Of a stretch of 64,000 nt of DNA, positions 3,649 to 60,520 are shown in pieces. A program made the translations under genes and the position numbers. The notes under the pieces are model-generated. The model was not told the origin of the DNA and made no database searches. It saw only the letters and a program-made list of their open reading frames with translations. How positions within the stretch are numbered: position 1 is the first letter of the stretch; each line of letters begins with the position of its first letter. This stretch comes from Mytilus edulis (taxonomy: Eukaryota): NCBI RefSeq assembly GCF_963676685.1, contig NC_092345.1:61380001-61444000 (forward strand). The letters are read 5' to 3'.

Positions 3649-4681
3649 TTTTTATACGCCCGTCAAAATTTTGACGGGACGTATTATGGTATACAAATGT
3701 CCGGTGTCCGTCCGTCTGTCTGTCTGTCTGTCTGTCTGTTCGTCTGTCTGTCCGGCGTAAACATGTTGCACCGTAATTTGAGAACGACTTATCTAAATTT
3801 CATGAAACTTAATATAGTTGTTTTTTATGATGATCAAATGATCTGTATACTTTTTGGTGAAAATAAGATTAAAACTTTTTGAGTTACGGCGCTTTGTAAC
3901 TAAAACAGGGGTGTGTTTTTTTTCACATGTCGCACCGTATCTCAAAAACGATTCTTGATTATTGCTTAAAACTTTACACACTTCTTAGTTATATTAATCT
4001 TAATATCTGTATACTTTTTGGTGATGATTCAAAATTTCATTTTTGAGTTATTGAGTATTTTGTAAAAAAGGGGGAGGGTTTTTTACATGTCGCGCCGTAT
4101 CTCAAAAACGATTTATGATTATTGCTTAAAACTTTACACACTTCTTTGTTATATTAATCTAAAGATCTGTATACTTTTTGGTGATGATTCAAAATTTTAT
4201 TTTTGAGTTATTGAGTATTTTGTAAAAAAGGGGGAGGGGTTTTTACATGTCGTGCCGTATCTCAAAAACGATTTATAATTATTGCTTAAAACTTTACACA
4301 CTTCTTTGTTATATTAATCTAAAGATCTGTATACTTTTTGGTGATGACTCAAAATTTTATTTTTGAGTTAGTTGTAAAAAAGGGGAGGGTTTTTTTACAT
4401 GTCGCGCCGTATCTCAAAAACAATTTATGATTATTGGTTGAAACTGTACACACTTCTTTGTTATATTAATCTAAAGATCTGTATACTTTTTGGTTTGATT
4501 CAAAATTTATTTTAGTGATATTTGTAAAAAAAAAAACAGGGGGGGGGGTCACATGTCCCGCCGTGTCTCAAAAGCAATAAATGGTAATTGCTTAAAACTT
4601 TCTCAGGCACTATTTATGATTATTGCATAAAACTTCCACACAAGACGTCGGGCGTATCATGCGCTCATGGCGCAGCTGTTT
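3649..4681 (+). mobile_element. Non-autonomous Helentron/DINE-1-like element with internal ~160-bp tandem array
   Basis: 5' TTTTTATACGCCCGTC with palindrome CCCGTCAAAATTTTGACGGG; (GTCT/GTCC)n microsatellite; repeat unit ACATGTCGC.CCGTATCTC at 3925, 4085, 4245, 4397, 4551; 3' GGGCGTAT inverted copy plus hairpin TGCGC-TCATG-GCGCA; T-rich flanks. Confidence 0.8.
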
Positions 4682-11270: not shown

Positions 11271-11623
11271 ATTCATTATATAAAAAAACTATTTCAAATG
11301 TGATTATAAAATCACATATCCTTCCCTTACTACCTGTTATTTTTATTAAACAAAAATGTCTTTGATATCTATATAACCATGAAGTGTAAGACGTACAATT
11401 ACTTTATAAGACCTACAATAATGTAAAATCCAGATTACAAAAACACTCAGGTAAAAACAATTCTTTAGATATGTCAAAAGTTTGTCAGTTATAGGAAGAA
11501 TTAAATGAAGGTCTTTTACAGTTACTACTCAAGGAATGAATATATAATTGATGTGAGTAAAACAACGTGGAAATTAAAATTATTTCGTATATCATTAGAT
11601 TTTATGAAAATCTTAAGTCCAAA

Positions 11624-12189
11624 TATTCTGGATCACATACGCAACTGTATTTACTATAAAGTCTATTGGATTGAATTTTCAGACATTCATATTTTCCGGA
11701 AATAATCTGGACTTATCCGTATTTTCACTACCGTTTACTTTCTCTTCCTCACCTGTCTATTGCAAATGGATGCCACGACAAATCTGCTCCTGTGGATATT
11801 GTGACAAATCACCGTCAAGTACGTTTCAAATCGATTATAAACTGTTAAATATATATACCGTTAATTCCGTTAACTTGAATTCCACGTTTATTCAACAAAT
11901 ACGAACTGTAATTGTTTATTTCTATGAATTGACCTGAGAATTCTACTTTCGTTTTTGACTTGATATTATTATTGCATTGAACATTCATATATTTCTTTCG
12001 TACATATTGTAAAGTATTGTATTTTTATTTCTTTCAGTTTACCAAACAATACACACTCTGTAAAAACTCCTGTACCAATTCTGGTGGAATTATAATCTAC
12101 AATCTTCACACACAAGTTGTTATTCTTTATAATTTGCCGAGATTGCGATACAGTCCCATGGTTATACTAGCTGAGTCAGGCTCAGCATA
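11624..12189 (+). repeat. 5' LTR (566 bp, TATTCTG...CAGCATA)
   Basis: Direct repeat of 18996-19561 with no differences seen by eye; boundaries fixed by the TSD and PPT. Confidence 0.95.
11819..12037 (+). other. Predicted 219-nt GT-AG intron inside the LTR (copy at 19191-19409)
   Basis: Donor AA|GTACGT at 11818/11819; strong acceptor TTTTTATTTCTTTCAG| ending at 12037; removal creates an 11-nt complement of the PBS. Confidence 0.7.
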
Positions 12190-12200
12190 GTAAATTGACG
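12190..12200 (+). promoter_or_regulatory. Non-tRNA primer-binding site GTAAATTGACG
   Basis: Abuts the 5' LTR; lacks the TGG that pairs with tRNA CCA; reverse complement CGTCAATTTAC equals 11813-11818 joined to 12038-12042. Confidence 0.75.
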
Positions 12201-12329
12201 ACAACCTGTCTTTACATATCCAGACAAGGAACGACAACGTAGCAACGTACATACGTACATACCTTTACACTGACAGTGGACTACATATCTTGTGTGAACT
12301 CGACAGCAACCCAACAACGTTGAGTCAAC

Positions 12330-15300
12330 ATGGATCCCAGTCATGTAGAACAACAAGAAGAGATTCAGCCCCAAGAAGGAGATGTCCCTGAACTATTAGA
12401 AAATCCGTCTAATACATCACAGTCAGATGAAACTCCCGAGGCTAGGCGAGTACGTGACCTCACGGAAAAAGGACAAGGGGCTTTCACTGAAAAACGTGAC
12501 AAGTTCTGTCAGGAACTAGAGGCTCTCTGGGCAGACATTGAATCCCAGTTATTGGAAGTAATAACGCCTCCTAACGATCTCCAGCAACTCCTAACAGTCC
12601 AGGACAAACTTGTTAAAGCCTGTAATAATTATCGTAGGCTCACAGATGAATACCTAGACTTTCTGAAAAGGACCCGAACATTGGAGAGTCAAAAAGAAAT
12701 TGATGCATGTAAACTCTCTTTGGATTTACGTCTGTCCAAAGTGGAGCTAGTTATGGAAAAACTACACGAGCATCGCCTCGCTCTAACAAAGGCCAAATCC
12801 ACTAAAACAAAGACCTCAAGGGGTAAGAAAACCTCTCACAGCGGTAGCTCTAACGTGTCAGACATGTCAAGCCTGGCACGGAGAAAGCGAGCCAAGGCAG
12901 AGGCTGCAAAGTCTAAGATAGCATTTGTCGAAAAACATGCCCTTATCCTACAACAGGAAGCAATGTTAGAAGAACAAGCCCTGTTCAGACAAAATGAAAT
13001 GGAACAGGAAGCAGCACGCAAAAAAGCTGAAATGGAACAGGAAGCAGCACACAAAAAGGCTGAAATGGAACAGGAAGCCAGTCGTAAACAGGCAGAAATG
13101 GAACAAGAAGTCGCTCAACGTAAACATGAGGCCGCACAGAGAACAGTTCAGCTAGAACAGGAGGCTGCTCACAGAAAAGTGCAATTAGAACAAGAGGCCG
13201 CTCACAGAAAAACGCAATTAGAACAAGAAGCTATGCGCAGGAAGGCTCAAATGCAACAAGAAGCCGCACGAGTAAGCCGGGAAAAGGCCGAGCTTAAAGC
13301 CAAATTTAACCTTATTGAAGCACAAAGAGAAGCTGCAGCCGCAGAAGCCGAGGCTCGTATCCTGGAATACGATGATAGCCAAGCGTATAGCGATCTCCCT
13401 GACGAAAAGGAAGACCCGCTCCAGCGTGTGCAAGATTTCGTCAATAAACTTCCTGTATCAACTGTTGTTAAGGAAGTAACAGGACCTCAAAAGAAAAAAC
13501 AAATTCCTGTTAAGATCGAGCTGAGTCACGAAGCACCAGCGTTCGTGCCATCCGTGGCATCGAACTTGCTGTCACAGACATCTGCCGTCTTGCCTTCCGA
13601 TAAGTCACCGGAAGTTACCTTTATCCCAGATCTGGGATTAGTAACCGGCATACAAAAACTAGGTCTTTCAGATGAGAGCCCTACTGAACACCAAAAACAG
13701 GGTGTTAAAGAAGCGATCCCTGTCTTACGCACAAAACAAGACGTTATAGAAGAGATCCCTGTTTCGCACAAAAAACAAGACGTAATAGAAGAGATCCCTG
13801 TTGCACACCAGCAACAAATCAACCTTACATCAGAGATAACTAGATTCCTCTTACGCAAGGACCTGCTTTTCTCCCGATTAACAAGCTTTAACGATCGGGC
13901 AGAATCCTTTCATACTTGGAAAGCAAGCTTCAAGAACGTGACTGATGAGTTACAAGTCTCTGACTCAGAACAGATCGATTTACTGATCAAGTGGCTCGGT
14001 CCAGAGTCTGCTAAACACGCCATTAGCATAAGAGCGTCGAACGCCAATAATCCTTCAATAGGTATACAGAGACTATGGAAGAGGCTTGACGAGCGGTATG
14101 GTGCTCCAGAAATGTTGGAAGCCTCTCTCATGAGTAAACTTGCCAAATTCCCTACATTGACGAATAAGGACAACGCACGTCTCTACGAACTATCAGAAAT
14201 AGAATATCACAAGGAAAATCCCAAGCTGGGATGTTTGCTAGCATACTTTGACTCTTCGTCCGGGATAAATCCAATTGTTGAAAAATTACCGTACGGACTC
14301 CAAGAAAAGTGGACAACGAGGGCTACAAGATACAAGTCTAAATATGAAGTTGCCTTTCCACCTTTCACAGAATTCTCTGCCTTCATCAGGGAAATAAGCA
14401 AAACAAAGAACGATCCTGGGTTCATCTTTGGGTCAAAAGTCACACCAAATACAAAAGGTGCTGCGCCAAGGTCTACGTCTTACCCTAAGACTAAAGTTGG
14501 TGCTCATAAAACAGCAGTTGAGCAGCAATCTGGTGAAGCCAGCAAACAAGGTCTTTGTATTCTGCACAATACAAAGCATTCCTTAAATGAATGTCGAGCG
14601 TTCCGAGCCAAGTCAATAGAGGAGCGCAAAGGTCTTTTGAAAGAAAACAATGTATGTTACAAGTGTTGTGATTCTACCACACACAGGAGCCGGGAATGCA
14701 ATGCACGCATAAGTTGTAAAGAATGTGGAAGTAAACAACACACTACCGCACTTCACATCACTAGACCACAGCAACCTGCAAGTTCTCAATCTAGCCCGCT
14801 TAAGCAAGCCTACGGCGGGGAGCCTATAGAATCGGCTGAAACTAAGGCAACCTCAGTTAACTCTACCTGTACTGAGATCTGCAAAGATACATATAGCGGG
14901 AAATCTTGTGCTAAAATACTGCCTGTGAATGTTTATCACAAAGATAACCAGGACAAAGTTATTCGCATGTACGCCATCATTGATGACCAAAGCAACCGGT
15001 CACTAGCATCGCCCGAATTCTTTAATCTTTTCGACGTCAAAAATAAACCGGAGAACTATACTTTATCAACATGCTCCGGCAAAGTAGTCACCTCCGGGAA
15101 AAGAGGAAGAGGTTTCATCATGGAATCAATCAACTGTAATGACAAGTTTGACCTTCCTGTACTGATTGAATGTGATCATATTCCAAATAATAGGGAAGAA
15201 ATACCTACTCCTGAAGTAACAATGCATCACCCTCATTTAAAAGAACTTAGGGGTAGCATTCCACCTATAGAGAAAAATTGGCAAATTCTTCTCTTAATTG

Positions 15301-18300
15301 GCAGAGACCTTATAGAGGCACACCATGTCCTCGACCAGCGCATAGGACCATCCAGAACTCCATATGCACAACAATTGAAACTTGGTTGGGTAGTGATAGG
15401 AGAAACCTGCATTAACAAGCAGCATGTTCCTCTTGAGTTAAATGTTAAAATAACCAACATTTTACCTACAGGACAACCTTCAACCTTTCAACCATGCACA
15501 AGCCAGTTTGACATCCGGGAAAACTACACAGACCCTGTAACGAAAGATTTACAATCGCCACTCTTTGAAAAAACAAGGGACGATGATAAGCCTGGACAGT
15601 CATATGAGGACAAAATGTTCATGAAACAGATGGACAACGAATTTGTCAGAGACTCGAAAGGAAGTTGGGTAGCACCGTTACCGTTCCGAGTGCCAAGACA
15701 GCCATTGCCAAGCAACAGACCCCAGGCTCTTCACCGTGCTAACATGTTAGACGCCAGTCTGAATAGAAACCCAGTGAAGCGGGAACATTTTCTTACTTTT
15801 ATGAGTAAAATCTTAGATAATAATCATGCAGAGCTCGCTCCACCATTGCACGAACATGAGGAGTGCTGGTATTTGCCATTGTTTGGTGTTTACCATCCGA
15901 AGAAACCCGATCAGATAAGAGGTGTGTTTGATTCTTCCGCCAAATGTAACGGAGTTTCACTTAACAGCGTCCTGCTTACAGGTCCAGACTTGACCAATGA
16001 TCTCTTGGGAGTATTGCTGCGTTTCAGGAAAGAAATGGTCGCAGTTACTGCAGACGTTCAACATATGTTTCACTGCTTTGTTGTCAGAAAAGACCACCGT
16101 AATTATCTGAGATTTTTATGGCATAAAGACAATGACCTACAGAAGAACCTTGTCGAATACCGCATGAGAGTTCATGTTTTCGGAAATAGTCCGTCACCTG
16201 CCGTTGCTACGCTTGGACTCAGAAAAGCAGCTCAAGCATCAGAACAAGAGTTTGGCAGTCACGTGACTAGCTTTGTTACAAGAGACTTCTATGTCGACGA
16301 CGGTCTAACGTCATGTCCTACTAAAGAGGAAGCTGTTAAGCTCATGAAGGATACACAGCAAGCATTAGCAAAATATGGAAACTTACGCCTTCACAAGTTT
16401 GCCTCTAATTGTGCGGAAGTTATGTCTGCATTTCATGCCAGTGATTTGGCTTCAAATCTTAAAGATCTAGACTTAGAATGCGACAGCAAACCCCTACAAC
16501 GTAGTCTTGGTCTCAGCTGGGACGTAAACACTGATAACGTCTTATTTCAATTATCATCAGAAAACAAACCGATCACTCGGAGAGGAATTTTATCAACGAT
16601 AAACAGTCTCTACGATCCTCTGGGATTTTTGGCTCCGGTGATTATACAAGGGAAACTCCTATTAAGGAAAATAGTATCAGAAACCGTCGATTGGGACCAA
16701 CCTCTCACTGATGAGACAGCAGATGAGTGGAAATCTTGGAGAGATACTCTTATTGCTATCGAAACATTGCGCATTCCACGTACCTACGTGCCGTATCTTA
16801 GCAAAACCACCACAAAAGAGTTACATGTCTTCTCTGATGCATCAGAAAAAGCCATAGCAGCTGTTGCATATCTACGCACGACCGATAGTAGTGGTGAACC
16901 AAACATAGGTTTCATTCTTGGGAAAGCTAAAGTTGCACCAACAAGTGGTCATACTATTCCACGCCTTGAACTATCTGCTGCAGTATTAGCAGTCGAGATA
17001 ACACAGACCATCATGGATAATTTAGATTTACATATAGACACCGTAAAATTCTACACAGACAGTAAAGTAGTCCTAGGCTACATCAGTAACGAGACAAGAA
17101 GGTTCTTTATCTATGTCGCCAATAGAGTAGAGAAAATAAGAAAATTTAGCTCTCCAAGTCAATGGAATTATGTACCAACTAACCGTAATCCCGCAGACTT
17201 GGGAACAAGGTCCGTACCTGCTCACGAAATTCATAGCAGCGAATGGTTATTAGGACCAAGACAACTTCTTTTCTCAGAACAAAAGAATTCTGAGGACATA
17301 TATCAGCTAATAGACCCAGAGGAAGATGGAGAAATACGTGCAACTGTTAATGTTGCAAAAACATTTGCCACACTTGAGCATAAAGGTATCGGAACTGATA
17401 GATTCAACAGATTCTCCAACTGGACATCACTTGTGCGAGCGATAGCCTTTTTGGAACGTTTCTCCCGTTTACACGGGTCTAAACAGACAGCACCAGTGAC
17501 TTCTCTGGAAGGCTTTTCGAATGCCGAAAATTTCATCTTAATATCTGCTCAATATGAAGTTTATGGAGATGAAATAGATTGCATTAAACGTCAGGAACAA
17601 ATTCATAAGCGGAGTCCGATAGCTAACCTTAATCCGTTTTTGGACAAACAAGGACTATTACGAGTAGGAGGCCGTATCGCCAAATCTGACTTAAACCTCC
17701 GTGAAAAGAAACCATTGATCGTCCCTGGACGCCATCATATAGCGACATTATTAGTTCGACACTACCACAACAAGATAAAACATCAAGGTCGCCATTTCAC
17801 AGATGGAGCGATTCGATCCGCAGGATTTTGGATCGTAGGAGCAAAACGCTTGATCTCATCTATTATTCACAAATGTGTGACATGCCGCAAACTCAGAGGA
17901 AAAACCGAGTATCAAATCATGTCTGATTTGCCAGAGGACCGTCTTGAACCTTCACCTCCGTTTACTAACGTTGGAATAGACACCTTTGGACCCTGGACAA
18001 TTGTTTCACGTAAAACACGTGGTGGATACGCTAACTCAAAGCGTTGGGCAATTTTATTCACATGCTTAGTGACAAGAGCTATTCACATCGAATTAATCGA
18101 GGAAATGAGTTCTTCAGCCTTCATAAACGCTGTCAGGAGATTCACCGCTATAAGAGGCCAAGTTAAGATTTTCCGATCTGACCGTGGAACGAACTTTATC
18201 GGCGCAATCGACGATTTAAAGATTGACTCAATCAACGTTGAAGATGGACCCTTCAATAACTTTCTGTATAATTCTGGTACAACTTGGATCTTCAATCCGC

Positions 18301-18902
18301 CGCATTCGTCCCACATGGGTGGAGCCTGGGAAAGAATGATTGGTATCACTAGGAGAATTCTTGATTCTATGCTTCTTAACGCAGCCGGAAGAAGCCTAAC
18401 ACATGACGTGCTCAACACACTAATGGCAGAAGTTTCAGCAATAGTGAACTCTAGACCTCTGGTACCGGTATCAACAGATCCAGAGAATCCGTTAATATTA
18501 ACTCCGGCTATGTTATTGGCGCAGAAAACCGACTACATTTTCACTTCAGACCATCTTGGGGAATTCGACAAACGAGATCTCTGTCTTGCCGAATGGAGAC
18601 GAGTACAGGCTCTAGCCAGTGTTTTCTGGTCCCGTTGGAGGAAGGAGTACCTGCCGTTACTACAACAACGACGAAAATGGACCGAAGATCGCCGTGATCT
18701 CATCGAAGGAGACGTCATTCTTCTAAAGGACAAAAACATTTGCCGTACGCAATGGCCCGTTGGAATTATAGTGAACTCTTTTAAAAGTTCAGACGAACAT
18801 GTCCGAAAAGCAGAAGTGCGAGTAATCGTTAATGGAAAAGCCACAACCTACACACGCCCTATCGTGGACATGATTCTTCTCATAGAGAACAAACCTGTGT
18901 AA
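12330..18902 (+). CDS. BEL/Pao Gag-Pol polyprotein, 2190 aa
   Basis: Uninterrupted ORF. Three Cys/His knuckles (CILHNTKHSLNEC, CYKCCDSTTHRSREC, CKECGSKQHTTALH; ~14557-14756); aspartic protease IIDDQS (~14980); RT FYVDD (~16290); RNase H VFSDAS...TIPRLEL; integrase H..H/CVTC with GIDTFGP, SDRGTNF, WERMI; PR-RT-RH-IN order typical of BEL/Pao; no env. Confidence 0.97.
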   Translation: MDPSHVEQQEEIQPQEGDVPELLENPSNTSQSDETPEARRVRDLTEKGQGAFTEKRDKFCQELEALWADIESQLLEVITPPNDLQQLLTVQDKLVKACNNYRRLTDEYLDFLKRTRTLESQKEIDACKLSLDLRLSKVELVMEKLHEHRLALTKAKSTKTKTSRGKKTSHSGSSNVSDMSSLARRKRAKAEAAKSKIAFVEKHALILQQEAMLEEQALFRQNEMEQEAARKKAEMEQEAAHKKAEMEQEASRKQAEMEQEVAQRKHEAAQRTVQLEQEAAHRKVQLEQEAAHRKTQLEQEAMRRKAQMQQEAARVSREKAELKAKFNLIEAQREAAAAEAEARILEYDDSQAYSDLPDEKEDPLQRVQDFVNKLPVSTVVKEVTGPQKKKQIPVKIELSHEAPAFVPSVASNLLSQTSAVLPSDKSPEVTFIPDLGLVTGIQKLGLSDESPTEHQKQGVKEAIPVLRTKQDVIEEIPVSHKKQDVIEEIPVAHQQQINLTSEITRFLLRKDLLFSRLTSFNDRAESFHTWKASFKNVTDELQVSDSEQIDLLIKWLGPESAKHAISIRASNANNPSIGIQRLWKRLDERYGAPEMLEASLMSKLAKFPTLTNKDNARLYELSEIEYHKENPKLGCLLAYFDSSSGINPIVEKLPYGLQEKWTTRATRYKSKYEVAFPPFTEFSAFIREISKTKNDPGFIFGSKVTPNTKGAAPRSTSYPKTKVGAHKTAVEQQSGEASKQGLCILHNTKHSLNECRAFRAKSIEERKGLLKENNVCYKCCDSTTHRSRECNARISCKECGSKQHTTALHITRPQQPASSQSSPLKQAYGGEPIESAETKATSVNSTCTEICKDTYSGKSCAKILPVNVYHKDNQDKVIRMYAIIDDQSNRSLASPEFFNLFDVKNKPENYTLSTCSGKVVTSGKRGRGFIMESINCNDKFDLPVLIECDHIPNNREEIPTPEVTMHHPHLKELRGSIPPIEKNWQILLLIGRDLIEAHHVLDQRIGPSRTPYAQQLKLGWVVIGETCINKQHVPLELNVKITNILPTGQPSTFQPCTSQFDIRENYTDPVTKDLQSPLFEKTRDDDKPGQSYEDKMFMKQMDNEFVRDSKGSWVAPLPFRVPRQPLPSNRPQALHRANMLDASLNRNPVKREHFLTFMSKILDNNHAELAPPLHEHEECWYLPLFGVYHPKKPDQIRGVFDSSAKCNGVSLNSVLLTGPDLTNDLLGVLLRFRKEMVAVTADVQHMFHCFVVRKDHRNYLRFLWHKDNDLQKNLVEYRMRVHVFGNSPSPAVATLGLRKAAQASEQEFGSHVTSFVTRDFYVDDGLTSCPTKEEAVKLMKDTQQALAKYGNLRLHKFASNCAEVMSAFHASDLASNLKDLDLECDSKPLQRSLGLSWDVNTDNVLFQLSSENKPITRRGILSTINSLYDPLGFLAPVIIQGKLLLRKIVSETVDWDQPLTDETADEWKSWRDTLIAIETLRIPRTYVPYLSKTTTKELHVFSDASEKAIAAVAYLRTTDSSGEPNIGFILGKAKVAPTSGHTIPRLELSAAVLAVEITQTIMDNLDLHIDTVKFYTDSKVVLGYISNETRRFFIYVANRVEKIRKFSSPSQWNYVPTNRNPADLGTRSVPAHEIHSSEWLLGPRQLLFSEQKNSEDIYQLIDPEEDGEIRATVNVAKTFATLEHKGIGTDRFNRFSNWTSLVRAIAFLERFSRLHGSKQTAPVTSLEGFSNAENFILISAQYEVYGDEIDCIKRQEQIHKRSPIANLNPFLDKQGLLRVGGRIAKSDLNLREKKPLIVPGRHHIATLLVRHYHNKIKHQGRHFTDGAIRSAGFWIVGAKRLISSIIHKCVTCRKLRGKTEYQIMSDLPEDRLEPSPPFTNVGIDTFGPWTIVSRKTRGGYANSKRWAILFTCLVTRAIHIELIEEMSSSAFINAVRRFTAIRGQVKIFRSDRGTNFIGAIDDLKIDSINVEDGPFNNFLYNSGTTWIFNPPHSSHMGGAWERMIGITRRILDSMLLNAAGRSLTHDVLNTLMAEVSAIVNSRPLVPVSTDPENPLILTPAMLLAQKTDYIFTSDHLGEFDKRDLCLAEWRRVQALASVFWSRWRKEYLPLLQQRRKWTEDRRDLIEGDVILLKDKNICRTQWPVGIIVNSFKSSDEHVRKAEVRVIVNGKATTYTRPIVDMILLIENKPV
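12996..13270 (+). repeat. Coding 33-nt (11-aa) tandem repeat in Gag
   Basis: EMEQEAARKKA / EMEQEAAHKKA / QLEQEAAHRKV-type units, about 8 copies. Confidence 0.9.
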
Positions 18903-18985
18903 TTATATGTATATATTTTGGATTAATATAGTGACATTCACATTTGGAATTATACTTTCTGGAATAGTGATATCAGGTAGATTTC

Positions 18986-18995
18986 AGACGGGGAG
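18986..18995 (+). promoter_or_regulatory. Polypurine tract
   Basis: AGACGGGGAG immediately before the 3' LTR start. Confidence 0.85.
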
Positions 18996-19561
18996 TATTC
19001 TGGATCACATACGCAACTGTATTTACTATAAAGTCTATTGGATTGAATTTTCAGACATTCATATTTTCCGGAAATAATCTGGACTTATCCGTATTTTCAC
19101 TACCGTTTACTTTCTCTTCCTCACCTGTCTATTGCAAATGGATGCCACGACAAATCTGCTCCTGTGGATATTGTGACAAATCACCGTCAAGTACGTTTCA
19201 AATCGATTATAAACTGTTAAATATATATACCGTTAATTCCGTTAACTTGAATTCCACGTTTATTCAACAAATACGAACTGTAATTGTTTATTTCTATGAA
19301 TTGACCTGAGAATTCTACTTTCGTTTTTGACTTGATATTATTATTGCATTGAACATTCATATATTTCTTTCGTACATATTGTAAAGTATTGTATTTTTAT
19401 TTCTTTCAGTTTACCAAACAATACACACTCTGTAAAAACTCCTGTACCAATTCTGGTGGAATTATAATCTACAATCTTCACACACAAGTTGTTATTCTTT
19501 ATAATTTGCCGAGATTGCGATACAGTCCCATGGTTATACTAGCTGAGTCAGGCTCAGCATA
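18996..19561 (+). repeat. 3' LTR (566 bp)
   Basis: Copy of 11624-12189, followed by TSD CCAAA. Confidence 0.95.
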
Positions 19562-20473
19562 CCAAATGATTTTTTTGTGCGAATTTTGTCACTTCGTCTG
19601 GCAAACCTTTTCAAAAGAAGATATCTGCATTATAACGTTCAGACGATATTCTCTATAAACCCATCCATAATTCTATTTTTTCAAATTATCAAAGATCTTG
19701 TTAAATATTTTTTAATGTGTCAAAAGAGAGATTTTTTTTTTAAATAATCCTGAAATTATTATTCTCTTTTTATTAGCTCCAATGATAATCCTTTGTGACT
19801 TTTTATATAATTTTGATTTTTATTTTGCTCATTATATTTATACAATCACAAAATGTCTTGTTGCACTTTATTTCTGCTAGTACAGTGTACACTTAAATGA
19901 ATAATTTTTTGGTGTAATATTTTATAATTCAGAACATTCCATGGAATTGGTTGGCTTTTAAATTCACCATTGTCTCTAAAAATATTTTTCGTGGCCGTGC
20001 TGTCTTAAAAAGTAAATACCGTTTAATTGGAGTTGTTCTGTTTGTATAAACAAATGTCGTTTAAGCATAGTTCGTTTCTTTCAATGGTATTTTTTTTAAT
20101 TGATAAAAAAGATAATTGTTCATTGATCCGTTTGATTGCAGTTTACACACGGTCAATTTGTTCAGTAGTAAAGATTTCATTATTTTTTTTTTCAATATAT
20201 TTTTTAGCAAAGCTTTCGTACGTTGCAGTTCTGTGTTACAAAAAAAGAAAAGATGTTTTGTAATAATTTTTAGACACATCTTGTTTCATGAATTCTTCAG
20301 AATTGAAGTGCGATTGAAGGTTTTTTACAGTATTTTTTGTTAACCCTTGTTTATATATTGACTGAATTTTTACCTCATCGAGGAAATATTTCACTTTATA
20401 CGGTCTGTACTATCTACGACAAAAACTTTTTTCTTGACGTCTTTTTTTTTTTGCATCAATTTTAATGCTTGCT

Positions 20474-20685
20474 TGATTTTTTTGTCCGTTGTGTTGTTTG
20501 TCACTGGTTGTATTGATTTTTTTGTCCGTTGTGTTGTTTGTAACTAGTTGTTTTGATTTTTTTGTCCGTTGTGTTATTTTTCACTGGTTGTATTGATTTT
20601 TTTGTCCGTTGTGTTGTTTGTCACTGGTTGTATTGATTTTTTTGTCCGTTGTGTTGTTTGTCACTGGTTGTATTGATTTTTTTGT
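20474..20685. repeat. 40-bp minisatellite, about 5 copies
   Basis: TGATTTTTTTGTCCGTTGTGTTGTTTGTCACTGGTTGTAT repeated in tandem. Confidence 0.92.
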
Positions 20686-23600
20686 TCTATTGACTGAGAG
20701 CGTTTGATTTTTTCAATTTCATTGACCATTTTTTTAAAATTTTCCTTGGAGTTCGAGTTTTGGTCATACTTTTTTCTTGACCTTTACTTAGATTAAAACT
20801 TCAAGTGACTTATAGGCCAATATTTCCATGCTTGAACTATATCGTTTTAAATTACACACTCAACTAATAAATCGCATGTTCTGCTCTAAACTTTTGTAAT
20901 TTTTGTGTGTCAGCTGAAGGAAATGTACTATAAAGAAAAAACAACACTTAAACGTAATATTTTGCACGAAGAAAACTTTGATGACGTCAATTGTTCCTCG
21001 ACTTTTCAAGGACATCACTGTGAAATCTATTCTGGCGCTTCGCTTGCATCTTGAGTCTCATTTAGATTGCAATTCACAAGTAATTGCTTTTGTTTTTAAA
21101 GGGGGAAACTCCCAATTATAATTCATCAGGTAAGAATTCTTTTTTTTATTGATTGAATTCATGTAAGATTTAAAAGATATTAAGAAATCATAAAAAAGGT
21201 ATTCTTCTGGTCTTTACATTTTGCAACTGTGTCAAAGAGGACGAAACACACTTACATGAATGAATAGTAAAAAAAATATTATTGAGGTTAATGAAATGTG
21301 CTTTATTAATTAAAAAAAACCACATATTTGAATTTTCAAATTTTGTACAGGTGTAAACGATTTACATGCAATATTGTGTACATGATATCAAATGTACGAG
21401 GTATTTTTTTAACATGTTAAAACTTGTTTATTTTTGTCATTGTACAAGACATAAAAGAGGGACGAAAGATACCAGAGGGACAGTAAAAACATAACATGTA
21501 CACTAGTTTTGTAATAGATTAAATAAATTGCAACGTGTACACGACATATACATTAGTATGTTCATGATATCTAATGTCTGAAATACATTGTATATCGAAA
21601 AATTATGAAGTATGTCAAAATTTGATAATAAGGCTAAGTTTACTCATAAATAAACTGATTATCGATGTCAGAATCCTAATTTTGAAGACGCGCGTTTATG
21701 CTTAAAAAAACTTCGTTAAGTAAGCATCATTACTAGAAATTAGACTTGCGGAAGTCTTTCTTGTGATTTTAAGATAAAGAACAGTAATATTAGCACTTTA
21801 ACTTTGGATTTTGTTTGGGTATTGTTGTTGTGTATGACTGAATTGGTGTTTTGGATAGATACCTAAAATCCTTTCTTTTTCTATTACATTTACGGAGGAG
21901 TATGTCTCTCGTGCTGTGCTAAAGTCATACAACGTTTCCTAGTGGTTGAGGTGTCCGTTTCTTTTGTTGAAGTTGCACAATGATCACCAGGCCTTTACCT
22001 TTCATTTTATAACCTAACTACCAAAATATATTCTATATAGAAATAAGAAGATGTGAGAATTATTAGGAAATGTTACAACCTTCAATAATGAGAAAACCAC
22101 ATACCGTGTGATCGGCTGTAGTAGTTTACATAATTTGATATTTGCAACTATGTGTGGGAACAATTTTGTTTTAAATTTGAACTACAATACAACGTTCTTT
22201 TTGACCGCGCCCGATTTTATTGTAATTCAAAGTCTATTCGAGTTATGTTGCAAAGAATTCAGTTCAAACTGGTGATAAGAGCCGTCATAACTTGCAGGTG
22301 GGTGAAGTTGGTAGTTTATTTTTGTCTGTGTTGAAGGCCTCACTGAGATCTTAAGTTGAAGACCAACAATTCAAGCGTTGTTCCGTTGCTTTTGTGTTTT
22401 TATGATTACAGTTATTGATTTTGTGTCATTAACGGATACCCAATTTCCTTTTGTGTTTTTTTTGGAAATCCTGTCATCATTGTCTTTCATTAAATGTATG
22501 CAATATTTTAATAAAGATATCATGTTTTCATCAGATTTGGTAAGAGTAACATTATTTCTTCTTTTAATTGAAAATCATGTAAAACTGTTTCATATCAGTA
22601 GACTTGCAAAATAAACACGAACAAATTTTTATAAAGTAACGACTATATATTAATGAATAAACATTGTAACCCGAAATTATTTTTTTTTTTTTATATAAAG
22701 ATGTCAATATTTCTTTTTTATTGGAACAATGAGGTTCAATTTGAAATCACTAATCTTTTTAACTTGTTGCATTATTGGCTACTTTTTTGAAAGGTCATTC
22801 GAACTGAGAGCATGGTATCATTGTAACATGGCTATTGAATATTGTAAAGATGTATACTGATCACTTACGACTTTATGGCTGTTGTTTTGTTTTTATATAC
22901 TGTCTCGTTTTACTTTGTTTTACTTGGTTGTTTATTGTTTGTTTAAACTTCCATTGCCACACACATTGTATATGTTTTATGACAATACAATTTAATTTGA
23001 ATATGACTGTATAACTTGTACAACAAACAGTTTCAATGTCATAAATAAAAGATGCAAAATGCGTTTGGTTCTTTTAATCAAAAATAATTTAATGGTATTA
23101 TAAATGCGAATATGCATGAAATATTCAACACTGATCGAAACCAAAACCATCCATCACCAATCTGATTATAGATCTGGGAAAATTAAATTGTGGTGCTTTC
23201 TGTTGAAGTCGGATAAAACAATGCAATTTATTCTCTGACAAAATATGTAGTAGAGGCTTTAGTGGCATAAAATGGCCCCAGATGTACAAAATAATAACAA
23301 ATTTAAACTGTGAAGATTTTTCTCCATGAATTGTTAGAATATGAGTCAATGATTATTTTTTATTGCACAAACATTGTTTAATGAAGTCATAATGAAAAGT
23401 GTACATGATGTAATGATTGGCGAACCCCCCCCCCCCAAAAAAAACCAACAAAAAATAAAAAAAAAAAACCAACAAAAAACCCAAAGGAAATAAATTGGGA
23501 TGGTTTTCTGCAATTTTATTCTTCTAACAAATTTATATAATACATTATTATGCCAAGACGGATATTACTTTTTTCAAAGTTTTTTTGTTGAAAATATGAA

Positions 23601-50451: not shown

Positions 50452-50975
50452 CTGAAATGTTCAATGGGTGATATTACAAATTTGATATAGATTTAATCAA
50501 GTTAAGCTGAAAAATGAAACAGACAAAATAGACTTTACACTTAACTGGTTTAATATGTAATTGGTTCATATAAAAAAAAAAGTTAACACAAAATATTTCG
50601 AATTGTTAAGCATAGGTATACATCAATTAGACAACACCCTTAAGTTGGGGATCTCGATATAACAAATTACTTAACACCTGTACTGAATTCTTGTTTTCCT
50701 GTTCCTGTAGAAAACTTGTTTCAAACGGATTCCGAAAATATCAACCTTAAGTTTAATGGTTATGTTGTTAACTGAGCCCATAAATTTAGATACGATCCAG
50801 TTAAACTAATCAATCCTTGAAAAAAAATATATCCTAAAAGGTATATTTGAACATTACTTTTAATGATATAAATAAATACTGATTTCGTTATCAGTAAATT
50901 ATCCCATTGTCGTCATGAATATCCGAACAGAACAGTTGGCCTACATAGACCCCACAAGTTAAACAAGAGACTCTT

Positions 50976-52430
50976 TTGTTAACGACAACAGATGACAGCG
51001 AAAAGATAAAACCGTGTGTATTAAATAGAATTTCGAAAATAATCGATATATCAAGATTCTCGTCATTGAAGTTACTACGAGATACATGCTACGTGTTTAA
51101 ATTTGTCAATATATGTAAAGATCAAATCGACCGCGCAACTCGTACATGGATTACAGATATTCAAAATGTAAAATTCAGTAGTGAAAAGAGGCAACTCGCA
51201 AACCCGTCACATGACAAGAATCTACCGTTAGTAAGACAATTGCGCTTGTTCATAGATACAGAAGGTGTCATTAGATGCACCGGGCGCATACACAATTCAC
51301 AGTTAGACGACTCCGCGGAGTTTCCAGTGTTACTACCGAAGAAAAATCAATTTACGGACTTAATTATATTGAACGCGCACCTGCAGATGTTGCATTCTGG
51401 TTCTGGACAGACAATTACGCAAATCCGCCAATCATATTGGATACCTTCCATTAGACAATGCGTTAACCACATCGTTCAGAAATGTGTAAAGTGCCGAAAA
51501 GTGACCGGAAAAGCATTTCCACAGCAAATTTCGCCTCCGCTACCAAAGGATAGAGTCACCGATATGATTCCATTTACGACAACTGGTGTTGATTTCGCTG
51601 GACCACTATTCGTTAAAGATAATGGAATTGTTACGAAATCGTATATTTGCCAATTTACATGCGCTTGTATTAGTGCCGTACACCTAGAACTTGTTACAGA
51701 TATGACAATCGAATAATTCAAATTAGCATTGAGACGATTCGTTAGTAGGAGAGTAATTCCCAGTACTGTGTATTCCGACAATGCACCAACTTTTGTTTCC
51801 GCTTCACATGATATTCCAAAGGAAATGAATATTCAGAGTAATTGGAAATTTATTCCGAAAGCAGCAACGTGGTACGGTGGATGGTGGGAGAGACTAGTTG
51901 GAATTACGAAAACGACATTGAAAAAAGTGCTCGGGAAATCTCAAGCAAATTCTGACGTATTACGAACAACTTTGATAGAAATTGAACGTGTAATCAACGA
52001 TCGTCCGATTACATTTGTGTCGTCCGACATCCGAGATCCAGAGCCGCTAACACCGTCACATCTACTGCAGGGAAGAAGATCATCGCAAGGGAATAATTCT
52101 GATTCAGAGATCCATTATTCACATTTTGATTTTACAGAAGCAAACAAACGTTACAACCATAAAGTAACTTTATTGAACACTTTGCAAAACGATGGAGAAT
52201 GGAATACCTCACCGGATTAAGAGAATTTCATCGCGTCGCCGGAGACCAAAGCGCACATGTGAAAATCGGTTCCGTCGTACAAATCATGGACAATTCACCG
52301 AGAATGATGTGAAAACTAGCAGTTATAGAAGATTTGATCACCGGAAATGATGGAGTAGTTAGAGCAGTCAAACTTCGAACATCAAATGGACTGATTACCA
52401 CGAGACCAATTGTGAAACTGGTGCCATTAT
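50976..52430 (+). mobile_element. Decayed BEL/Pao integrase fragment (different lineage), intronic and antisense to the host gene
   Basis: H..LH...CVKC, TGVDFAGP, SDNAPTF, WYGGWWERLVG, PLTPSHLL; TAA at 51714-51716, frameshift near 52180, further stop near 52310; possible 3' LTR start TGTTG at 52519. Confidence 0.9.
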
Positions 52431-59560: not shown

Positions 59561-59599
59561 ATCTCTTTTTAACATAAATAGTAGTTTGAGAATCTGTTT

Positions 59600-60520
59600 A
59601 ATAAACATTTGTTTAGAGATTCGTGGTTACATTCACCCGTTTTGAATCATCCATTTTCAGATTCTAGTTTTCATGCATAGTTTTTTTTTACGATTTTGAT
59701 TTTACAATTATGGCTAAAATTCATTCATTTGAAAATTACAGTTGGCATTCATTGGTATTAAGCTTCTAATTTAGTTTTTGAGATTCTGGATTCATGCATC
59801 GGTTTTAAAATTCTGGTTTATATACATCGGCTTTCGATTCATTTTGGTTTGCACACATTAATGTTGAAATATGGAATCAGGATTTAATATTCATGTTAAC
59901 ATTCATCGGTTTAAAGATTTTAGTTTACATTCATTGATTTGATATCCTTGTTAACAATCAACGGTTTGAAGATTCTAGTTTACATTCATTAGTTTTGATT
60001 TGCAGTTTAACAATAATTGTTTTTTTCAGATTCAGTTTTTATATTCTGGTTTTCATGCATCTGATTTAGGATTCTGGATTACATATATCAGTTAAAGATT
60101 CATTCTGGTTTACAAATCATCGGTTCTTCGATTCTGGTTTACATTTATAGATACATTTGTTTTCAGTTTTTTGTTCACATTATCGGTTGTGATTCTGGTT
60201 TGTAGTCATCGGTTTAAATATTCATGTTGTCATAAATCGATCCTGATAATCTGGTTTAAATTCATCGTTTTCACGTTTACATAAAATTGTTCTGAGAATC
60301 GGGTTTCTATACATCGGTTTTTAGAATCTAGTTTACATTGATCGGTTTTGAAATTCAGGTTTGAATTCATCGGTTTTGAAATTCTGGTTTAAATTCATCG
60401 GTTTCAAAACTACTTTATATACAGCGGTTTTGAGAGTCTGGTTTACATTCATCCATTTCAAGATCCTGGTTAACATACATCGGTTTTGTGAGTCTTGTTT
60501 ACATTCACCCATTTCAAGAT
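59600..60520. repeat. Degenerate ~28-bp minisatellite
   Basis: CATCGGTTTTGA.ATTCTGGTTTACATT-like units (28-nt spacing, e.g. 60368 to 60396). Confidence 0.75.

Follow-up and report, generated by a model that had tools for sequence, protein, structure and literature searches.

The spliced 5' RNA of the retrotransposon described here is likely its own primer for reverse transcription, and pairing between exon 1 and the leader beyond an open loop likely serves as the anchor of this primer, a combined reading to which a probability of roughly 0.7 is assigned. The element is located in the window, i.e., the whole stretch of 64,000 nt under study, and the genome analysed for comparison comprises 1.37 Gb. 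Its features, numbered from the first letter of the window, are as follows.

11619..11623, + strand: target-site duplication (TSD) of 5 bp, repeated at 19562-19566
11624..12189, + strand: 5' LTR of 566 bp with ends TA...TA, identical to the 3' LTR
11788..11806, + strand: exon-1 strand of the extension (TCC, TGGATAT, GACA), equal to primer positions 18-36; from sequence and folding
11807..11812, + strand: exon-1 strand of the open loop, ending in CAC (primer positions 12-14); from clade conservation
11813..11818, + strand: the 6 nt closing exon 1, which make up the 5' half of the core helix; from sequence
11819..12037, + strand: predicted GT-AG intron of 219 nt inside the 5' LTR; from sequence, the equivalent intron being precisely lost in loci L088 and L113
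12038..12042, + strand: the 5 nt opening exon 2, which make up the 3' half of the core helix, and putative 3' end of the primer, with a presumed cut at 12042/12043
12170..12186, + strand: hairpin of 7 bp at the LTR end, just 5' of the primer binding site; from sequence and folding
12190..12200, + strand: primer binding site (PBS), exact complement of the splice junction, without a TGG start; from sequence
12201..12206, + strand: leader strand of the open loop, A/C-rich; from sequence
12207..12230, + strand: leader strand of the extension (TGTC, ATATCCA, GGA), invariant in 28 copies
12330..18902, + strand: single gag-pol ORF of 2190 aa (Pao peptidase PF05380, DUF5641 PF18701)
18982..18995, + strand: polypurine tract preceding the 3' LTR; from sequence
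18996..19561, + strand: 3' LTR of 566 bp with the intron retained; from LTR comparison

The window locus is a young BEL/Pao retrotransposon. Its ORF contains a Pao peptidase A17 domain (E 9e-50) as well as the BEL-type integrase C-terminal domain DUF5641 (E 1e-22), and the two LTRs, TSD, polypurine tract and gag-pol ORF of a BEL/Pao element are all present, while no env ORF was found in the element. The assignment rests on these domains together with the element structure and is made at the level of BEL/Pao, not of a clade within it. With its Pao peptidase and DUF5641, one gag-pol ORF and a 5-bp TSD, the element resembles the mollusc BEL/Pao elements of the Sailor lineage (Sinbad, Sparrow and Surcouf). 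In the window's subfamilies, the LTR ends are TA...TA (11624-11625, 12188-12189) and not TG...CA; other families end in TG..CA, TG..TA or TA..CA. The gag region of the window element includes 33-bp tandem repeats at 12962-13270, encoding a stretch rich in E, Q and A. The hairpin at 12170..12186 is strong in the window and weak or absent in many other families, and a strong LTR-end hairpin was rejected as a clade feature for not being general across families. Elsewhere in the window, two neighbouring frames with a stop between them, one encoding an integrase zinc-binding domain (PF17921), mark a decayed mobile element at 50949-52220, and tandemly arrayed units of close to 28, 160 and 40 bp occur at 59589-60516, 3755-4601 and 20433-20725, respectively.

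Central to the proposed priming is the PBS. Positions 12190-12200 are perfectly complementary to 11813-11818 fused with 12038-12042, the two flanks of the 219-nt GT-AG intron, and the longest contiguous match of the PBS in the unspliced LTR of the window amounts to 6 nt. A tRNA-type primer site is absent from the window element, the PBS starting with GTA and not with TGG, and an Rfam search at 11600-12400 gave no matches. Among 28 copies of the window's family, the PBS is unchanged. For comparison across families, 60 of 150 listed DUF5641 loci were hand-picked for long frames and differing scores, giving 61 with the window locus; four of them had no LTR pair and 12 were removed by eye as mis-paired or partial repeats, which left 45 LTR pairs. 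In 37 of these 45, the PBS matches the element's own GT-AG LTR junction over at least 10 nt, compared with 36/454 trials using a foreign PBS and 9/660 using a shuffled one. The eight misses comprise a tRNA-type site (L034), a boundary error (L046) and six further loci. Although tied to the junction in this way, the site is not a shared sequence: 22 families carry 19 different PBS 11-mers, the sampled proteins are 28-97% identical to that of the window, and core positions 1-11 are Watson-Crick paired in 15/15 families with up to four pair types. A second sample (60 of 150 listed loci of the window's gag clade), matched under stricter rules, contained 44 loci with an 11-nt match and 16 with none. 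Self-priming by a core helix at the splice junction is regarded as very likely.

Among the fetched loci, a TGG-type tRNA primer site was present only in L034 and its relative L035, a BEL/Pao family of the same genome that keeps this site and forms a long branch in the tree. In L044, L045, L047, L048 and L050, the junction-matched PBS seems to begin 2-4 nt past the LTR end, whereas it abuts the LTR in the GT clade, i.e., the clade around families with a PBS starting with GT. The base directly following the core on the exon-2 side (12043 in the window) is C in 23/24 families and may represent a candidate cut signal.

Further evidence is provided by fossils in the genome. Locus L088 (G000:C13:12829427-12839426) possesses a 5' LTR from which exactly the 431-bp intron is missing and a 3' LTR that keeps it, with both exon parts 100% identical between the LTRs and the TSD intact. 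A second intron-less 5' LTR, belonging to a different family, was detected in L113/L187 (G000:C1:22940300-22950299), with no 3' LTR within the next 10 kb. Both intron-less 5' LTRs show a template whose 5' end had been spliced at the predicted sites. A fossil of another kind is L075 (G000:C8:38521897-38531896), an element with identical LTRs and a TSD, which directly after its 5' LTR harbors a perfect reverse copy, 122 nt long, made up of the beginning of exon 2 and 114 nt of exon 1. Through a short homology rich in purines, this copy is joined to gag at a point lying about 1.1 kb further along, with leader and gag start being replaced. In the simplest reading, plus-strand synthesis would have read through the primer, i.e., spliced RNA on the minus strand, and then jumped at the homology. 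The length of exon 1 in L075 is a lower bound, mapping loosely, in a weak alignment, to about 11736 in the window. Exact searches for read-through or intron-less copies in the window's own subfamilies returned none. A wider read-through pattern yielded six matches (controls three), one of them real (L153, which is L075), and a wider intron-less pattern yielded 173 (controls 72), of which 30 were checked and found to comprise one LTR (L162, which is L113), two sites inside pol and 27 unrelated sequences.

Pairing of exon 1 with the leader beyond the core was assessed in 24 representatives, with L075 left out. All 18 representatives with a PBS starting with GT exceeded the shuffle mean, 12 of them at p<0.05, and none of the other six was significant; the GT families together with L052 constitute one starred clade in the tree (100/99). 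In a permutation set of 15 families, from which three close relatives of the window had been dropped, exon 1 paired with its own leader at -16.0 kcal/mol vs -9.5 kcal/mol for swapped leaders (0/100000 permutations), where the energies are model values and the shared ancestry of the families makes the permutation count overstate independence. The own leader ranked first in 8/15 families. With the core detached, the signal resided in positions 12-46 (0/20000), with none in 47-90 (13225/20000). The pairing profile along the primer is 0.99 at positions 1-11, drops to 0.25 at 12-17, which equals the control, and rises again to 0.79 vs 0.33 at 18-20 and about 0.6 vs 0.25 at 21-35, before fading after 36 and ending near 40. 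Based on this profile and the clade-wide swapped-leader test, the layout of core, open loop and second helix is a feature of the clade. Hence, the fold proposed in the preliminary description, in which exon 1 folds back on PBS and leader past the core of 11 bp and an open loop flanks this core, recurs with different sequence throughout the clade, whereas its exact three-helix register is not general, as the register past position 11 shifts between families and no fixed-register covariation was found.

Between L076-type and L100-type elements, two close subfamilies, matched changes are found on both strands and exon 1 prefers its own leader (-20.8 vs -19.7 and -25.8 vs -16.3), and within the L076 type conservation on the two strands is 0.96/0.99 at positions 18-41 vs 0.85/0.83 further out. 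Within the GT clade, the exon-1 strand of the loop has a conserved CAC (C in 16/18, A in 17/18, C in 15/18), with the leader side being A/C-rich; an unpaired (AC)CAC on the exon-1 side (11810-11812 in the window), occurring in most families of this clade, is a candidate stop signal. In contrast, six junction-matched families outside the GT clade displayed no extension (488/720), whether in the near or the far range, and in four of these the core was not formed in folding. By strength of the extension, L076, L100, L067 and L079 rank as strong and L056 and L065 as weak, and L037 and L044 have none. Since these six are junction-primed without a detectable extension, the latter is not a universal requirement. 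Within the GT clade, the extension is with good probability a selected helix, and, given such a helix, anchoring is the somewhat favored candidate for its main job. As side observations on these relatives, in L076 and 37 similar copies a second PBS and leader, of the window clade, are preceded by a different LTR that has a PBS and leader of its own, and the L076-type gag-pol is about 96% like that of the window, an arrangement that amounts to an LTR swap or capture; moreover, frames of about 1290 aa occur in many copies of the window's gag clade.

For the window copy itself, the pairing segments named in the preliminary description are all complementary and correctly placed (TCC 11788-90 with GGA 12228-30, TGGATAT 11793-99 with ATATCCA 12216-22, and GACA 11803-06 with TGTC 12207-10), as are the strands of the 6x6 loop (11807-12 and 12201-06) and of the core (11813-18 plus 12038-42 against 12190-200). 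The collinear match score of this extension was equalled by 72/5000 shuffles and by 23/1342 interior 35-mers, and the duplex energy gave p 0.048 (500 dinucleotide shuffles); taken by itself, the window extension is modestly above chance (p 0.014-0.05). Its own leader ranks 4th of 15 for exon 1 of the window, which pairs better with sister leaders (-17.9) than with its own (-15.0). The suggested folding of spliced vs unspliced RNA bore out the core, with a probability of 0.9-0.99 in the spliced form, and supported the three additional helices in part, these reaching, among the values listed from single-strand folding, 0.09-0.72 when spliced, depending on temperature and assumed RNA start, and at most 0.17 when unspliced. 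The extension drops at 20 C, and a local hairpin (11782-87:11792-97) competes with it. Among 28 distinct copies (30 fetched from 40 listed, 222 candidates), the leader from 12190 to 12230 shows no change, compared with 7% variation over the remaining leader, and 12/14 extension pairs are intact in all copies, the exceptions being the outer pairs 11793:12222 (broken in 8 copies) and 11788:12230 (broken in 2). Covariation within the window's family, suggested earlier as a check, was not observed, no compensatory change occurring among the 28 copies. What establishes the extension as real is the family-level test.

A transcription start upstream of 11788, as postulated from the pairing, is supported indirectly, since pairing covaries to about primer position 36-40 and the sister-family fossil L075 holds 114 nt of exon 1. 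TATAAA (11655-60) and the pyrimidine tract (11734-50) do lie where they had been reported; TATAAA, however, is present in only 14/28 copies and absent in sister subfamilies, and its reading as a promoter was rejected as unsupported. RNA reads from four runs (28, 48, 24 and 21; 121 in total) contained no exon joint and no pile-up of starts or ends and covered the intron, a number too small to be informative. AATAAA or ATTAAA is located 14-63 nt past the acceptor in 18/24 families, with none in exon 2 of the window. In the window's subfamily, exon 1 also includes a 12-codon upstream frame (11766-11804) that overlaps the extension strand; sister subfamilies preserve its start context, and none of the 28 copies differs at 11764-11773.

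From these observations, the following course of priming can be envisaged. Transcription would initiate within the 5' LTR at a site well upstream of 11788, after which the cap-proximal intron would be removed and the intron of the 3' LTR retained, as the fossils in sister families suggest. The exon joint would then pair with the PBS over 11 bp, leaving the C/A-rich loop open, and exon 1 would pair with the leader over about 20 further positions. A 3'-OH would be freed by a cut just 3' of the fifth base of exon 2, for which the RNase H domain, as in Tf1, is the probable enzyme. Because such a cut would also separate cap-exon 1 from the template, the core, which is AU-rich and contributes -9 to -14 kcal/mol, would be backed up by the extension, which contributes about -6 kcal/mol beyond chance in the model, comparable to the boxes that back up the 10-nt PBS of Ty1. 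During plus-strand synthesis, 11-14 nt of the primer would be copied, so that the PBS is rewritten in every cycle; copying would normally halt at the loop, with L075 as the one read-through product seen. Strand transfer would presumably proceed via the exon-2 overlap.

Parts of this scheme have precedents. In Tf1, Tf2 and Tj1, which belong to the Tf1/sushi group of Ty3/gypsy elements, no tRNA is used; instead, a stretch of 11 nt in the RNA of the element itself pairs with a PBS adjoining the LTR and an RNase H cut frees the primer (PMC7175516; PMC4600332). Likewise, the PBS of the window is complementary, over about 11 nt, to LTR RNA of the element itself, but only after splicing. While Tf1 has a Ty3/gypsy polyprotein and its primer consists of the contiguous first 11 nt of the transcript, the window element has BEL/Pao domains and its predicted primer is internal, exists only after splicing and carries a 5' tail of at least 100 nt (114 nt of exon 1 in the L075 copy) that pairs further with the leader. 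For an RNase H cut at the end of the RNA duplex, as in Tf1, the conserved C after the core (23/24 families) hints at a site here. In Ty1, a 10-nt PBS helix is backed by interrupted pairing of the 5' part of the primer just downstream of the PBS (Boxes 0 and 1), whereas pairing of Box 2.1 was not confirmed in particles (PMC3592414). Interrupted pairing downstream of the PBS is shared with the present element, where it is known from family comparison and folding. In contrast to Ty1, which employs host tRNA-Met of fixed sequence, both strands are here element RNA and change together between families.

Of the other explanations, a real helix whose main job is not anchoring is considered unlikely. 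Such a helix might stop plus-strand copying at the loop, set the cut site or act as a packaging or translation switch marking spliced RNA, and this would be in line with cores ending sharply at 10-14 nt next to the conserved CAC, with an extension that forms only after splicing in folding, and with the upstream frame overlapping the exon-1 strand in the window's subfamily. Sharply ending cores, however, also occur in families without extension, upstream ATGs are missing in 4/22 families, and stop, cut-site and switch functions are all compatible with anchoring. Slightly less probable still is that the extension is a decaying by-product without present role, left behind when an over-copied primer overwrites the leader with the complement of exon 1 and then drifts. 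Over-copying does occur, as evidenced by L075, and would produce family-specific complementarity with a shifting register, just as observed. Yet decay should leave most pairing beside the core; instead, positions 12-17 do not exceed the control and pairing is found at 18-35. In addition, both strands are conserved over exactly the extension stretch (0 changes at 12190-12230 in the window, positions 18-41 in the L076 type), and the sole over-copy found (1 of 6 matches, 0 in exact searches) deleted part of gag. Over-copying may nevertheless have been the first origin of the exon-1/leader pairing.

It is quite improbable that priming is done by a separate LTR transcript, short and spliced, that originates in a solo LTR or a 3' LTR or terminates early at the poly(A) site of the 5' LTR, which binds in trans and gains family specificity through the extension. 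Cis and trans priming look alike in sequence, the extension is indeed family-specific and L075 would appear identical in both cases; against this, spliced exon 1-exon 2 in L088 and L113 is continuous with U5 and PBS in one template, so that the genome RNA itself must have been spliced at its 5' end and been able to fold back. Finally, chance pairing in AT-rich sequence, chosen post hoc, could account for the window-only p values of 0.014-0.05, the rank of 4 of 15 and the six families without extension, but is largely refuted at clade level by permutation and position profile and hardly deserves consideration.

The literature searched does not address how reverse transcription is started by BEL/Pao elements lacking a tRNA site: in term look-ups, a paper on mollusc BEL/Pao elements made no mention of primer, tRNA, intron or splicing (PMC6238403), the Sinbad paper none of primer binding, tRNA or priming (PMC554778), and no description of splice-made primers was found in a search of mostly freely available papers. 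A junction-made primer with a clamp would be a new way for such elements to begin copying themselves. The fossils represent direct genomic traces of splicing and primer copying, the extension offers a defined structure of core, loop and second helix that can be probed, and LTR finders requiring a tRNA PBS will miss or misjudge junction-primed families. A splice-assembled primer would explain the survival of the intron in both LTRs although the element passes through RNA, and would give a natural asymmetry between 5' and 3' LTR. More broadly, and with odds only a little better than even, a large animal BEL/Pao clade may build a tRNA substitute from its own 5' end: the spliceosome would make the 11-nt priming end, the CAC loop would provide the plus-strand stop, exon 1 would clamp the leader like the arms of a tRNA, and the unspliced 3' LTR would transmit the intron while being unable to compete for the PBS. 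A primer assembled by splicing would tie transposition to the host spliceosome and, if this is true, host splicing would act as a switch for retrotransposition.
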